This document shows, in pieces, positions 2,937 through 41,280 of a DNA stretch of 64,000 nucleotides (positions within the stretch are counted from its first letter, which is position 1; the number at the start of each line of letters is the position of its first letter). The notes beneath the pieces are model-generated. The model saw only the letters and a list, made by a program, of their open reading frames with translations. It was not told where the DNA came from and did not search any database. The DNA comes from Octopus vulgaris (lineage: Eukaryota): contig OX597816.1 in the NCBI GenBank assembly GCA_951406725.2, forward strand, positions 139,128,001 to 139,192,000. The letters run 5' to 3'. The position numbers and the translations under genes were made by a program.

Positions 2937-3120
2937 TAATGTTTATCACCATTTCAAAATGGCTGTTCCGTAGGAACCGACGTTGCATCATTTTAACGCC
3001 AGGAGGACGCCTCCTTCAGCTGTTGAAGTGGCGATAAACATTACTTCTCAGTATAGTTACTGCTTTCATCTCCTATAGAAATTTTTCAAGTAGCTAATTT
3101 GTTTATATATATATATATAC

Positions 3121-3417
3121 TGAAGATGCATGGCTTAGGAGTGAGTGTGTTGCTGACGCGCTTGCGAGGTTGTGTTTTGATTTCTCAGACTGAGCGTTGC
3201 ATTGTGTTCATGAGCAAAACAACTCATTTCACGTTGCTCTACGATTATTTTGTCATCTGATATGTGACACACCGTTCGCCCGTACAAGTAATTTCGATTT
3301 GATGGAGGGTGTGAGCTTATATGAACGCAAACATTTGATCACTATAAACAAATCGGCCCCTGTGGTTATTCAGCAAGAAATTGCAGCACCTACGTCGTCT
3401 AACGACAGGAGAGTCCA
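3121..3417 (+). mobile_element. Old SINE, family A head with tail zeta
   Basis: Degenerate A head and body. Tail CGATTTGATGGAGGG...ATCACTATAAACAAATC...GGAGAGTCCA is shared with 9456-9718. Confidence 0.7.
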
Positions 3418-3420
3418 AGC

Positions 3421-3489
<69 letters not shown>

Positions 3490-3506
3490 TAGAGAGAGAG
3501 AGAGAG

Positions 3507-3583
<77 letters not shown>

Positions 3584-4047
3584 TACCTATATCCATATCA
3601 ATATATATGCACACACACACACACACATGTATATTTAATACGTATAAATTAATATTCGTTCACTGTAAAATTGATTGAGTAGAAGATATGAGAATTCATG
3701 ATTGTGTTAGTCAATGAGAACTAAAAATAAGTGAAACGTCTAAGGACTCTTAAGACATTATCCTATATTTATTTACTCATGTTTAATTTAATCGTCCCTT
3801 TTATGCTCTAAGACTGTTACACGTTCCACAATGATTGGCAGGAAGTTACTTTTTAAAGGGTTGTTTGACATTAGCGTTCAGTTATTGTTATGTATTATAC
3901 TTATAAATGAAAAGTGTATACGCTTTTGGGGTTTATATACGAGTCATAATATATTTGGACTTAATAAATGAATTGATGGATAGGTTTTCCAAATTGTATT
4001 GCATATTAATAAAAACAATATATATCTTGAAGACAACTACAAGACAT

Positions 4048-4252
4048 TGGCGGAAGTATGGTTAAATTTAAGAAGCGAGATTTGCATGCTTGTAATTTGG
4101 AGTCCAGTCCCTCTGGGGGTATCTTGGAGCGGGTGTCTTCTTCTGTAGCCCCGGGCTGGCCAATGCATTGGGAGTGAATTTGGTAAAGGAAAACTGTGTG
4201 GAAGCCTGTCGCATATATGTGTGTGTGTGCGTGCGTGTGTGTGAGTAGGTGA

Positions 4253-4298
<46 letters not shown>

Positions 4299-4545
4299 CT
4301 GTCTGTGTGTGTGTGTGTGATTGTGGCTGTGTTTGTTCTACCGATCGCTTTGATAACCAGTTTTCGTTTGCTACATTCCCGTAATTTATCGATTCGGCCT
4401 AAAAAAACAACAACAAAAAGAGCATAGAATAAGTACCAGACTTTAGAAAAAGTACTGGGGTCGATTTCTTGACTAAAACGGTTCAAGGCAGTGTCCCAGC
4501 TTGGGCGCAGTCTACTAACTAAAACAAATAAAAGATAAGATAAGA
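4048..4545 (+). mobile_element. Old SINE family B copy with an expanded internal (GT)n
   Basis: Colinear with 20103-20512 (TCTTGGAGCGGGTGTCTT, GAATTTGGTAAAGGAAAACTG, AGAATAAGTACCAGACTT). Confidence 0.75.
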
Positions 4546-4656
4546 TTTGGTAAAACTGCAAGATACAGCAGAATGTGTTTGTGTTCTGTCACTTTGAAAA
4601 CGATTACGACCAGAAATTCACTGATGAATTTATCTGGCCTTATAGTAAGCGTTAGA

Positions 4657-5031
4657 ACAAATGAATGAAATCTGTTCTATACTTTTGAGATGAGGAATTC
4701 TGTACATTATTTACATTGGACGGGTTTGTGTCCTCATATTGTTTGTTGTTACCACAAAGTTTCGACAGATTTACACTCCAGCCTTTGTATGGTGAGCTGA
4801 AATCTTTCAAGCGCATGATCCAAATTTTGAACGGAGTGCAAAACTTTCTACTACAATAACAAATGCTTCTGCGTGTTACTGAGAAATTTATAGAGAGTGA
4901 AAAAAAGCTTCTCTAGACGTGTGAAATTTCACTGGTGACCACCGTTGTTTGTTAAAAAGAAAGTTGTATCAATGTAAATAATGTACAGAATTCATCATCT
5001 CAAAAGTATAGAACAGATTTCATTCATTTGT
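4657..5031. repeat. 62-bp inverted repeat (4657-4718 / 4970-5031), likely a Penelope-like inverted terminus
   Basis: The arms are reverse complements with 1 mismatch. A decayed hammerhead-like segment on the minus strand (AGGCTGGAGTGTAAATCTGTCGAAACTTTG) lies inside, at about 4755-4790. Confidence 0.7.
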
Positions 5032-5557
5032 GAATTGGTGATCGCGTCTGTAAGTGATGGTGTGTGCGAGTCTAGTGCGAGTGAAGTGATTCAGGAAATG
5101 ATTATATCTTTTATTATAAATGATCTTGACATTCGTTTTAATTTACATAAAATATTCTTTACATCCCACTGTTGTTTTATTGCCATTTATGTACGAGTAT
5201 TATAAATTCTGTAGGCAAAATATTTTCTCTGGGAACGAATTACGATTTATAACATTGCTACTGTGGGAAATGATGCTCTGTTTTACGAGTAGTCTCCGGG
5301 TACAAATTAACATGTATATCGAGGCATTACTGTATTTTGTTGAGAGATAACAATAACTTTCAGTCTGAAAATACCACATGTTAAACATCTGAATAATTGG
5401 GAACGACTCCAACCACAAGTCTTAAATGCTTTTAGAAAGTTTGAAGTACATGTATGTCACCTACAACAAGGAATTCAAGGCCTGTTGTAGACCAACCATC
5501 GAGAAGCTAATTTATTTCTTTACTAGAAAATACGCACGCACACACATGTACACGTGC

Positions 5558-5604
<47 letters not shown>

Positions 5605-5605
<1 letters not shown>

Positions 5606-5647
5606 TGAGTAACGGCATTTGTTATATTTGTGCTGCTTTTAAATAAA

Positions 5648-5707
<60 letters not shown>

Positions 5708-6324
5708 AAAACTTACTTGGAAGAGGATGCGTGACGTTTCGTCATATAATAACAAAATAATAAATAAAACATATGCATATATATACATACCTACATCTAT
5801 ATGTATATATACATATGTATATATACATATGTACGTACCTACATCTATATGTATATATACATGCATATATAGGTATAGGACACCAAACAAACGTCGAACA
5901 CAATGAGAAACGAAAACATAAAAACGGAACCATGGAAACGGACATTGTGTTCGACGTTTTTTTGGTGTCCTGTACCTATATATGCATGTATATATACATA
6001 TAGATGTAGGTACGTACATATATGTATGTATATATGCATATGTTTTATTTATTATTTCATATATATATATACTTTATTTAAAAGCAGTACGAATATAAAT
6101 AATGCTGTTACTCAGAGTTTCACGTTCCCGTTCGTCGGACAGTTATATATAACTGAAAAATGCATTGTAAATAAACAACGACAAATAAAAAGCGTATACG
6201 TATCAGACACAGAGGGTCGCGAAACTGAGTATTACCATTCTGGTTGATAACTGATGAAGAATTAGAGATCCTCTGTGTCTTATACGTATACATTTTTTTA
6301 TCTGTCGTTTATTTACAATGCATT
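5605..6324. mobile_element. Doubly folded-back ribozyme-bearing repeat (Penelope-like or retrozyme-like)
   Basis: IR1 is 5605-5905 / 5943-6115 (the left arm carries insertions). IR2 is 6159-6218 / 6267-6324. Hammerhead-like cores are present on both strands. Confidence 0.65.
6105..6142 (-). ncRNA. Candidate minimal type I hammerhead ribozyme (U4C core variant)
   Basis: Minus strand reads CTGT-CCGACGA-ACG ggaa CGT-GAA-ACTC t GAGT-A-ACAG. All three stems pair, and the cleavage triplet is GUA. Confidence 0.6.
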
Positions 6325-6441
6325 ATTTCATTTTTTAGTAACGGTACGCAACACACACCAGACGTTTATTAACAGTAAATTCATTTATATATATATATAT
6401 ATATATATACATACATACACACACACAGAGACACACACACA

Positions 6442-6520
<79 letters not shown>

Positions 6521-7110
6521 CATCTCCAAACCTGTACATTATCTCCAAACCTTCTAATATATATATATATATATATAGCAATTCAGCAAAAGTGCGACAG
6601 AATAAACAACTGACAAAACTCCCCAAGACAGTGTTCCAGCAAGTCCGCAGTTTTATGCCTTTCACAAAAAGAGTAAAGGAGTATATTCTTTAACAGTATG
6701 GTGTTTTGTTAAACTTCAGGGAAAAACCCCAAATCTTCCCCGAATAAAAAAAAAAATTACCACGGAAGCCTGTAGCCTTTAGTTTAATACAAGTTAGCAT
6801 AAAGTTTACTACGATTACTGCTATGTCTTAAATATAATGCCCAGGGGCTCTTAGATTGGGGTCCAGCCGGTACTTTGTTCCGGGGCCAAAGAGATAAAAA
6901 GAGCTCCACAGTAACTACGTAACATTCATCTCCCCTTGAAAACAAGCACCTTCCACTACCCACAGCCCGACATACTTTTACATTTATATACTGAAGCATC
7001 ACTATACTAATCAACACCACACTTCTTTTAAATAGTATTTATTATTAATTATTGTGGGCCTGGTTGTATAGACATATGATAGAACCAAGACTTCTACCTA
7101 CAGCCCGGGG

Positions 7111-8074
7111 CTCCAAAGGGATCTTGTACCTATTTCTTTACTACTCAAAAGGAGCTAAACACAGAGGGGACAAACAAGGACAGACAAACGGATTAAGTCG
7201 ATTATATCGACCACAAGTGCGTAACTGGTACTTAATTTATCGAACCCGAAAGGATGAAGGGCAAAGTCGACCTCGGCGGAATTTGAACTCAGAACGTAGA
7301 GGCAGACGAAATACCGCTAAGCATTTCGCCCGGCGTGCTAACGTTTCTGCCAGCTCGCCGCCTTCTCCAAAGGGATCTTGTATCTATTTCTTTACTACCC
7401 ACAAGGGGCTAAACACAGAGGGGACAAACAAAGATAGACAAACGCATTAAGTCAATTACATCGACCCCAGTGCGTAATGGTACTTAATTTATCGACCCCG
7501 AAAGGATGAAAGGCAAAGTCGACCTCGGCTGAATTTGAATTCAGAACATAAAGACAAACAAAATACCTATTTCTTTACTGCCCACAAGGGGCTACACACA
7601 GAGGGGACAAACAAGGACAGACAAACGGATTAAGTCGATTATATCGACCACAAGTGCGTAACTGGTACTTAATTTATCGAACCCGAAAGGATGAAAGGCA
7701 AAGTCGACCTCGGCGGAATTTGAACTCAGAACGTAGAGGCAGACGAAATACCGCTAAGCATCTCGCCCGGCGTGCTAACATTTCTGCCAGCTCGCCGCCT
7801 TCTCCAAAGGGATCTTGCACCTATTTCTTTACTACCCACAAGCGGCTAAACACAGAGAGGACAAACAAAGATAGACAAACGGATTAAGTCAATTACATCG
7901 ACCCCAGTGCGTAACTGGTACTTAATTTATCGAACCCGAAAGGATGAAAGGCAAAGTCGACCTCAGCGGAATTTGAACTCAGAACGTAACGGCAGACGAA
8001 ATAGGGCTACGCATTTCGCCCGGCGTGCTAACGTTTCTGTCAGCTCGCCGCCTTCTCCAAAGGGACCTTGTACC
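7111..8074 (-). mobile_element. Head-to-tail array of SINE family C (Nin/Deu-domain-like) units separated by a repeated ~19-bp target sequence
   Basis: CTCCAAAGGGA(T/C)CTTG(T/C)A at 7111, 7365, 7802 and 8055 separates the units 7129-7364, 7383-7801 (dimer) and 7820-8054. The body on the minus strand contains GACTTTGCCTTTCATCCTTTCGGGGTCGATAAA. Confidence 0.9.
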
Positions 8075-8960
8075 GCCGTGCAAAATTTCTCTTGGAGCCC
8101 TGATAATGCTATGATAAATCTTTGAACGGTACAACTTAATCAAGATGGATTCAGTAGACCAATGATAATCTGTCTAGATTTAATGTTAAAAAAAATTGTA
8201 AGAATATTCGGAAAACTGATAATCTAACAGAAAAAATTTCGGGCGTTAACTGAATACTTCTTGTTAACCTAGCTCGTTTTCTGTTTAGTTCCAATTTTTA
8301 ACCAGCTTTATAATTATAAGTATTATGTAACTTCTTGTTACATATCTGTACGCCTGTTAGAAAGAACGGGGAGGAGAAGATAAGTATGGATGTACGTAGG
8401 TGGCTAAATAAACAGAATACATTTTTTGTCTTGATTGTCGTTTTTCTCTGTTGTTTTTGAAAGCAAGGAGAATGACAGAGCCAAGGGTGTCTGGGGGACG
8501 TATGAAATGTGTTTATATTTGTTTAGATTAAAACTCATATGTTAAGAAGCTCTCGCTGTTGTTTTGAAAATATATCGCATTTTAGACGTTCTTACATATT
8601 AAAAGACTTCTGTAACTAGAGAAGCTCAATTTTAACTGCATTAACAAAGACATACTTAGATATGTATGCAGGCAGAATACACACAAATACGGACGTTTAT
8701 ATACATACTCATACACATGTGTGCGTGCGTGCGTGTATGTGTGTGTGCGTGCGTGTGTGTATGCATGCATGTATGTATGTATGTATGTATGTATGTATGT
8801 ATGTATGTATATGTATTTATACACAACTCTAAATGTATGTGTGCATGAGTATGTCTGAGTGTGCGCGTACATGTGTACGTATGTGTGTGTGTATATATAT
8901 ATATATATTTGTATGTATTATGTATGTATGTATGTATGTATGTATGTACGTATGTATGTT

Positions 8961-8992
<32 letters not shown>

Positions 8993-9455
8993 TGTATGCA
9001 TGTATGTATGTGTGTCTGTATGTATGGCTATATAGTGCACATATGTGAACCAGGTTTTCGCATATTTAATTTAGTTTTCGTAAAAAAGTCACATCTGTCA
9101 ACCATTATTCATCATCTATTTTTCTTTTCTTCAATTTTGCATTGGAACCCTTCTGCTGTGTATGAGTGTAGGGTGGTGTATGAGTGTATATGTGTGTGTG
9201 TGTGTGTACGTGTTTGTGAGTGTGTGTAAGTATATTTTATAGGATATATTACATGCCTAACTACCCTTCCACCTGTAGCTCTCTATACATATATGTGTGA
9301 ATGTGCGTGTTGGTGAACGTATGCGTTTGTATATGGCGAGAGGGAGAAACAGAGAGGAGAGGATTGAGAGGCCACAGAAATAAGTACTATGAATGTATAT
9401 AGATAGTTATATGCATTCTGTGATTACGTTTATTAGTATTCGTCCTTAGTATCCT

Positions 9456-40140: not shown

Positions 40141-41212
40141 ATATATATATAGATATGGGATAACATCTAGTCTTCAACTATTTGTATGGATTTGGAAGGT
40201 TTACGATTCGAGTTATTTGCTTACTACGTAACCAATATTGTTTGAGACAATAGATGTAGTAATTACACACTACATTATCAATGTTTAAGTTGGTCCTTTA
40301 AATCCTTGGTGATGGAACCGTGTGTCTGATAAAACATGTGTTAATACTTACAGTTTCATTATCTTTTAACAATTTTAATTAGCTTTAAACATAGCAAGGT
40401 TTAATAGTAATAGTTAATTACAAGTACATTTGTTAGATCCTATTTAATAATATTTAATGTTTCTATTAGTTACTGGTAATTTAATATTAAAGCTTGTAGC
40501 GGTGATATATTAATGAGTTTGTAGTGTTTTATTATTAACTTTTGAATGATGAAATAATGTATTTCACTCATAATTATTATATTATTAGTTAAATTAATTT
40601 CAATCGTGTTTGTTTTGTGTTGGAGAGATTTATATATAGCTTTACCTTTCATTATAGTAGTAACTATGGAAGACTGGTGGGATTATTATTTATATGGACT
40701 TAAAGATTGGTCGCGAGTTAGAATATAATTTAGTTATTGCGGTTTACTATTAGTACCAATACAATTTACATTGGTTTAAATGTGTCTTTGTTGTAGTTTT
40801 ATTAAAGTTAGTGTTTAATTCTGCCTATTAATTTATTGATTGAATGATTGTGGTTATTAAGCCTTCACTTTTATATTATACTATGGAAGACAGTAGAGAT
40901 TATAATTTCTGTATGACTTGATATATTGGTCGCTATTGTGTTACGTGTTTAGGAGTTGGTTGTAATTTCCTTATTGAATTTATGTACCGATATAGTTGTG
41001 CATAGGGCAAATGTATTTGAAATTTGTGGTTTCTTTGGTTTCTTTGTTCCGAAACAACACTTATTTTAGTACTGTTGACAGCGCAGGATTGAATGGTACT
41101 CCCCAGGTGTAGAAAACATAATGATATCCGTGGGGCTGCTGATGATGGATGCATGTTGGATTGCTGGTATGGCTGTTTTGTATATGTGGAATAGTATTAT
41201 AACACAGCCTTT

Positions 41213-41280
<68 letters not shown>

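Follow-up and report, generated by a model that had tools for sequence, protein, structure and literature searches.

Several described systems join hammerhead ribozymes to repeated or circular nucleic acids, and we compare the locus reported here with the accessible parts of the papers that describe them. Penelope-type elements (PLEs) are on record as leaving inverted 5′-truncated copies and as targeting (TA)n (PMC8557442), and those of the Hydra clade carry minimal type I hammerheads (PMC8557442; PMC4209133). For Naiad PLEs, the available text of Craig et al. 2021 (PMC8557442) reports no canonical hammerhead, and eight Naiads are flagged there as half-core. Animal non-LTR retrozymes derive from PLEs (PMC7229834; bioRxiv 10.64898/2026.07.22.740005), and viroid-like circular RNAs with paired ribozymes are also known (PMC10162972). 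According to the consulted sections of Eckert 2023 (PMC10085705), known hammerheads hold at most 1-2 nt between CUGAnGA and the next stem.

We analysed a stretch of 64,000 nt from Octopus vulgaris (GCA_951406725.2, contig OX597816.1, positions 139,128,001 to 139,192,000, forward strand), referred to below as the window. A sequence-only reading had proposed that 5605..6324 is a single element made of two adjacent inverted repeats, with ribozymes in both polarities. Both repeats are present: hairpin 1 has core arms at 5807-5905 and 5943-6041 (92/99 matched) and outer arms at 5605-5650 and 6070-6115 (41/46 matched), and the arms of hairpin 2 lie at 6149-6218 and 6262-6333 (59/77 columns matched). 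The single element did not survive genome searches with parts of the locus, which separated it into three high-copy repeat families, with 254 first-look candidates for family A (6070-6146), 984 for family B (6219-6398) and 1148 for family C (query 5870-5946). The two ribozyme motifs come from different families, and A and B are seldom neighbours, the minus-strand motif being present in 2 of 29 other fetched loci that bear the plus-strand motif. In hairpin 1, two C copies lie head-to-head between two A pieces that are tail-to-tail; hairpin 2 consists of a B copy and its own inverted 5′ copy, and (TA)n terminates each piece. The two A copies of the window are 41/46 identical, about the same as unrelated A copies are to each other (88-93%).

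We consider it quite probable that the locus is a composite of 5′-truncated pieces of three Penelope-type families inside one TA microsatellite, and that the motif on its plus strand is an orphaned 3′ half, derived from a conserved hammerhead fold of the non-circularly permuted kind; in intact copies this fold likely cuts the element RNA. The earlier assignment to ribozyme-bearing retroelement DNA stands. The features of the locus are listed in Table 1. Further along the window, at 7127-8116, lie tandem copies of a repeat of ~250-300 nt with a tRNA-like box and four copies of a 90-nt core, which resembles an abundant SINE.

Table 1 Features of the composite locus, in positions of the window.
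Positions	Strand	Feature	Basis
5605..5650	+	Family A, 5′-truncated 3′ end of Hydra-clade PLE: the 7 nt preceding the hammerhead cut, the 3′ strand of stem I and AATAAA, into (TA)n	Sequence, A-copy comparison
5708..5945	-	Family C, 3′ part of non-autonomous ~840-nt unit, with internal 36-nt duplication and GTAAGT tail at the end; truncated downstream of the ribozyme	Genome copies
5943..6058	+	Family C, another copy, facing the first head-to-head as a PLE-type inverted 5′ copy; core of hairpin 1	Self-comparison, genome copies
6070..6146	-	Family A, 3′ pLTR piece of Hydra-clade PLE	Genome copies
6105..6142	-	Minimal type I hammerhead	Sequence
6149..6218	-	Family B, inverted 5′ counterpart of 6262-6333, with which it forms hairpin 2	Genome copies
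6219..6398	+	Family B, 5′-truncated copy of ~710-nt non-autonomous unit, (TA)n end	Genome copies
6219..6229	+	Permuted hammerhead, block G: final 2 nt of the stem II 3′ strand, then GAAA and the 5′ strand of stem III	Comparison with intact copies
6232..6243	+	Strand b′, one side of the helix predicted to bridge stems I and II; partner lost in the window copy; register differs between families	Comparison with intact copies
6245..6262	+	Block C: 5′ strand of stem I (6245-6250), then CUGAUGA (6251-6257) and w′, a strand of helix W (6258-6262); the window copy has lost every partner	Comparison with intact copies

The minus-strand hammerhead (6142-6105) has the type I layout that had been described, with a predicted cut between 6109 and 6108, and the left arm of hairpin 1 does begin 7 nt ahead of that cut site. 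Its core CCGACGA (a U4C change) and its short palindromic stem III had gone unmentioned; stem I has 4 bp and stem II 3 bp with a GNRA loop. Because stem III is short and palindromic, a dimer is expected to be needed for cleavage, following a rule given in the accessible text of PMC4209133, and PMC3088659, as far as available, describes U4C as a change that reduces in vitro activity but suffices in a viroid. The family A motif lies ~1.2-1.5 kb behind an endonuclease-coding stretch at four loci (L088, L090, L091 and L095), and a protein piece upstream of an A copy gave 150 scored genome matches; Pfam and PDB searches with family A protein pieces returned no match. At locus L149, direct pLTRs of 725 nt, 99.9% identical and each with a hammerhead, surround a 727-residue frame that bears, when read by eye, the Hydra marks RWK, DKT and CxCX5C (marks from PMC8557442). 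Judged by these signatures, with the CxCX5C linker, the canonical order of the hammerhead and the (TA)n all present at L149, family A is an ordinary Hydra-clade PLE end. An ordinary autonomous PLE carries the minus-strand motif at its 3′ end, an outcome which the sequence-only reading had itself named as telling against it.

The core differs between subfamilies of A, being CUGAUGA in a young one (16 copies) and CCGACGA in that of the window (15 of 27 parsed copies), and three further CCGACGA copies are linked to a coding stretch. Another family of PLE-type minimal type I hammerheads (loci L023, L028, L030 and L054) alternates between CUGACGA and CCGACGA cores, so the U4C change may have expanded here on more than one occasion. 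Loci such as L148-L150 belong to a very young Hydra-clade PLE family, for which more than 100 listed places score equally; many of them keep the 727-residue frame intact, and both tandem and inverted arrangements occur. This family is a candidate helper for the young C units described below.

On the plus strand, both words that had been pointed out, GAAACTGAGTA at 6221-6231 and CTGATGA at 6251-6257, were found, with one match in the window against 0.01 expected by chance. They had been taken for a hammerhead in type II order (GSC), closed by the inverted repeat and cut after GAGUA. The permuted words are genuine and conserved in genomic copies, but the type II order is not borne out, as pairing in these copies follows the order S-G-C. 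The local stem I after the NUH that follows GAAA has 0/5 pairs in 73 of 99 GAGTA copies, and a pattern excluding GAGTA at that place has 3067 genome matches (control 150), so that the proposed cut site is not conserved. Type II stem II (the strand after A9 with the strand before G12) is 74.5% paired with no double change, and has 1-2 of 5 pairs in lineages B, D and E. Closure by the inverted repeat also fails, since the repeat is private to the window copy, where 7 bases after A9 stay unpaired and no usable stem II results. A dimer reading of the motif was rejected, as was a coding explanation of the similarity between B and C, whose shared words lie in different frames by eye.

By comparison with its intact relatives, the plus-strand motif, with its GAAA and CUGAUGA blocks, is the 3′ half of a hammerhead in non-circularly permuted order. 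The window copy cannot fold a ribozyme because 5′ truncation has removed the cleavage block and the partner of stem II. Its predicted fold buries CUGAU in a side hairpin, no S-like block occurs upstream on the plus strand within the window, and an Rfam scan of 3000-9000 gave no hammerhead among 81 matches up to E 5, just weak miRNA-like hairpins below threshold.

In the flanks of the subfamilies, the strand before CUGANGA pairs upstream of GAAA, and this partner is preceded by NUH and, before that, by the partner of the strand after GAAA. The complete fold would run, from 5′ to 3′, through strand w, hairpin Z, strand a (stem II 5′), strand b, the stem III 3′ strand with U16.1, H17 and the cut, strand c (stem I 3′), 3 to 6 nt, strand a′ (stem II 3′), GAAA, the stem III 5′ strand, strands b′ and c′ (stem I 5′), CUGANGA and strand w′, which places the predicted cut of intact copies upstream of GAAA. 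As read from these alignments, the block order S-G-C is that of the SGC/CSG class in the accessible text of Eckert 2023 (PMC10085705), but opened between A9 and G10.1. The stem II 5′ strand stands at the 5′ end of the motif, directly after hairpin Z and not after CUGAnGA, the strand after A9 (w′) pairs with the strand directly before Z (w) to form helix W, and in intact copies the two extra helices W and Z take the place of the A9-G10.1 link. W and Z are predicted to stack coaxially, so that A9 would enter and G10.1 leave at one nick. Under the rule of 1-2 nt cited above, this junction is without tested precedent. In C copies, a′ can alternatively pair with G8-A9-AGG, giving an inactive fold.

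Several other architectures were tried and rejected. A strict type SGC, with block C unbroken and a stem II strand right after CUGAnGA, does not fit, since the stem II partner lies upstream and w′ follows A9; the motif works like SGC only. A hairpin after A9 ('Y'), our first model, was superseded by helix W, and a splice acceptor before stem II that would join A9 to G10.1 is contradicted by several families that have lost its AG and carry a change in helix Z that compensates. A kink-turn between stem III and b:b′ has its pattern in the Naiad-type majority and in 0 of 9 C families; the Naiad-type motif (L346-L390) shows a kink-turn-like GA, 3-nt bulge, GA arrangement beside stem III.

The shared-word pattern has 3260 exact matches in the genome, against 0 for a reversed control. 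Ninety-seven of 184 motif copies passed a filter for an intact upstream part, and among these pairing is full in 78 for stem I (5/5), 78 for stem II, 67 for stem III, 66 for W and 74 for Z (4/4). The core bases CUGAnGA, GAAA, U16.1 and H17 are conserved in intact relatives; conservation of CUGAnGA and GAAA was preset by the search pattern, unlike that of U16.1, kept in 94 of 96 intact copies, and of H17, which is C in 54, U in 26, A in 15 and G in 1 of 96 (not G in 95/96). Stems I and III pair within their own copy at a mean of 9.41/10, compared with 7.94 ± 0.11 when halves are swapped between copies. In a MAFFT alignment of 22 hand-picked C-type copies, from which B rows were excluded as MAFFT shifted them, 97.3% of cells pair (slid controls, 41-48%) and both sides change in 10 of the 24 pairs (6.7 in shuffles, 1/500; the shuffles ignore relatedness). 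These double changes fall in stem I (4), stem III (3), Z (2) and stem II (1), with none in W. Because W and stem II are nearly invariant within the C lineage, their support comes from the comparison of four or five lineages.

Four deep lineages carry four different, fully paired versions of stems I-III; a fifth, the Naiad type, does likewise. For stem II these are GAAGG/CCTTC, GCACC/GGTGC, GAGCA/TGCTC and a D version, with GACAC/GTGTC in the Naiad type. The majorities of 12 families pair at 60/60 positions in stem I, 60/60 in stem II, 59/60 in stem III, 48/48 in Z and 58/60 in W, where W and Z of family D were misplaced by the parser (3/5 for W) and the correct pairing, TTTCC/GGAAA, was seen by eye. 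The candidate bridging helix b:b′, which stands outside the formal covariation count, has 5-10 ungapped pairs in seven of the 12 majorities and 3-4 in five. Stems I, II and III pair in S-G-C order with covariation in the intact relatives, the window copy not being among them. On this comparative evidence the RNA fold of intact copies appears well supported, and we would be surprised to see it overturned; that the fold cleaves we regard as likely. A metagenome pattern scan gave 14 matches, all 14 without the fold.

The last 600 letters of 18 of 54 published Naiad consensus records, identified by file order, were read by eye. The form with W and Z is readable in five of the 18 tails (two octopus, two coral and one box jellyfish), with a squid record as a probable further case; four tails (three nematodes and one spider) have a plain CSG form, and eight showed no such fold. 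In the octopus genome the Naiad-type motif has 427 exact matches (control 0), and the majority of 26 copies has stems I, II and III fully paired, Z at 7/8 and W at 5/6. At locus L372, a reverse transcriptase (RT) remnant (RVT_1 E 1.3e-5, below the curated cut-off) lies ~0.9-1.1 kb upstream of a Naiad-type motif on the same strand. The window itself contains, at 40654-41246 on the plus strand, the decayed 3′ tail of a Naiad, at 85% to L365, which has a (TA)n end and, near 41050-41145, a mutated permuted hammerhead. The Naiad tails of oyster and acorn worm (in the PMC8557442 supplement, the records that precede Naiad_Sglo and Naiad-2_Skow) have another conserved-looking structured motif in common, lacking hammerhead boxes, which may be another ribozyme class. 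On balance, we lean towards the view that Naiads and their protein-less derivatives carry an active hammerhead in a seventh order beyond the six published, with the core opened at A9/G10.1 and splinted by two stacked helices. The missing Naiad ribozyme would then have the W/Z form in cnidarians and cephalopods and the plain CSG form in nematodes and spiders, and would define a large class of circular-RNA retrozymes in animal genomes.

Families B and C form partial head-to-tail tandems with periods of 709-711 and 836-875 nt and arms up to 99.7% identical; in the young C subfamily the unit, present in partial tandems, is 836 nt long and its longest frame 85 aa. They share with retrozymes a build of non-coding tandem units with one ribozyme each. 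No coding link to Naiads, elements with an N-terminal GIY-YIG and a C-terminal RT, was found for families B, C, D and E, and no sequence link of B or C to any specific autonomous protein; PLE-like coding remnants near B-E copies (four loci and two loci) have mixed orientation and were taken as neighbours. GTAAGT occurs at the usual 3′ end of B/C units, with branch-point and acceptor-like words ~80 nt later (loci L007, L012, L081 and L087), and B and C units have in common a CACGTG-like box. These words could possibly mark a short intron and a promoter as in Penelope; no spliced contig was seen for B/C units.

The 5′ ends of copies bear on processing. Among 111 pattern matches, taken largely in list order and with the hand-picked loci L182-L201 and L282-L291 excluded, 103 could be assigned, and 28 of these begin within 14 nt 3′ of the predicted cut, that is 0.019 per nt against 0.002-0.004 in six upstream bins (about fivefold). 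An independent set of 23 C copies, obtained with a downstream query, has 5 of 16 in this zone (0.0195 per nt, against 0-0.005 on both sides), and the B copy of the window starts in it, 2 nt before GAAA. Many A copies also start, by eye, right at the 5′ edge of their own hammerhead. The pile-up could also come from reverse transcriptase stalling at a pseudoknot. Of eight public runs, all contig sets of guessed or unknown run type with none recorded as RNA, two contained one unit-length self-closing contig each with a 30-nt overlap (X1, 829 nt; X19, from another organism, 838 nt), and run X7 shows cDNA adapter ends; closed contigs fit circles or multimers, and tandem DNA could also give them.

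We propose that a partial tandem copy is transcribed and that two cuts would release a monomer of 710-840 nt, perhaps circularised, which PLE protein supplied in trans may reverse-transcribe into (TA)n. Since the template stops there, copies would often have their end at the cut or just 3′ of it, and the B copy of the window, unable to fold a ribozyme, would be such a product.

The covarying fold could be real and yet have no cleavage of its own, being a protein-binding or RT-stalling structure descended from a hammerhead, or one in need of a host factor. We hold this to be unlikely but to deserve attention, given the A9/G10.1 junction without tested precedent, the alternative inactive pairing of a′, and the 26 of 96 copies with U at H17. 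PLE hammerheads are also weak in vitro (PMC4209133), and for a lizard PLE the accessible text of PMC11167929 states that hammerhead cleavage was not needed in vitro and that no reads ended at the site. Against it, five lineages retain all catalytic-core bases and obey the NUH rule while their stems turn over, and the Naiads of nematodes and spiders have the plain CSG form, a type for which cleavage has been shown.

Another possibility is that the active form spans two neighbouring tandem units or a circle, joining block C of one to S and G of the next as a CSG hammerhead with an insert of ~700 nt, in place of the compact fold with W and Z. Units do occur as partial tandems, and helix W is able to join units as well as to close one; the bridging helix b:b′, however, needs b′ next to c′ in one unit, and autonomous Naiad tails hold the whole fold in about 100 nt, which makes this very improbable. 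Hardly credible at all is the original single viroid-like element with working hammerheads in both polarities, the plus-strand one being of type II and cutting after GAGUA. Both motifs and both inverted repeats do exist 80 nt apart, but they belong to three families that adjoin in few other loci, the plus-strand motif lacks its 5′ half, and neither stem I, stem II nor the GAGTA of type II is upheld by the copies compared above. The reading we retain is that of a composite locus with the orphaned half of a permuted hammerhead that is probably active in intact copies.

If the permuted fold cleaves, natural hammerhead topologies go beyond the six thought possible, and non-circular permutations move from unplaced environmental RNAs into animal chromosomes, in thousands of copies. 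It would also explain why Naiads seemed to lack hammerheads. The fold offers a construct of 100-130 nt with a predicted cut and built-in compensatory variants and is directly testable. The window locus itself is a warning that pile-ups of PLEs in TA repeats can mimic two-stranded viroid layouts.

A full-text search of the literature, largely without subscription papers, found no permuted hammerhead in Naiads or retrozymes and no helices at A9/G10.1, and the accessible parts of PMC13725137, PMC11167929, PMC10162972, PMC6765202 and PMC7229834 hold no such description either. The likeness to viroid-like circular RNAs with paired ribozymes (PMC10162972) is superficial, consisting in ribozyme words on both strands, whereas the two motifs here are unrelated insertions, one of them incomplete. 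Family A agrees with the Hydra-clade PLEs of PMC8557442 and PMC4209133, as far as described there, in RWK, DKT, CxCX5C, the C-terminal endonuclease region, (TA)n and the palindromic stem III, and stems I and III of Hydra-2_aMil are nearly identical to its own; it differs in that the window's subfamily has spread with a U4C core, while its younger sister subfamily has CUGAUGA.

Families B and C resemble the animal non-LTR retrozymes of PMC7229834 and bioRxiv 10.64898/2026.07.22.740005 in their non-coding tandem units with one hammerhead each, PLE derivation and predicted linear and circular monomers, but retrozymes carry type I hammerheads in units of ~170-400 nt, whereas the B/C units of 710-875 nt carry the permuted fold. 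Naiad PLEs (Craig et al. 2021, PMC8557442) share (TA)n targeting, partial tandems, inverted 5′ copies and the same tail fold, and octopus and squid records carry the flag 'HHR_half_core'; in contrast to Naiads, no protein is encoded by families B-E, and the young C copies, at 97-99% identity, are more recent than the cephalopod Naiads, which the available text calls long inactive. The type-SGC/CSG hammerheads of Eckert et al. 2023 (PMC10085705, consulted sections) have, as here, the cyclic order C-S-G, a short linker between stems I and II and full conservation of the core; their helix bridging the far sides of these stems has a candidate counterpart here. In contrast to them, block C of the fold described here is split, the stem II 5′ strand stands at the 5′ end, and helices W and Z occupy the A9/G10.1 position.
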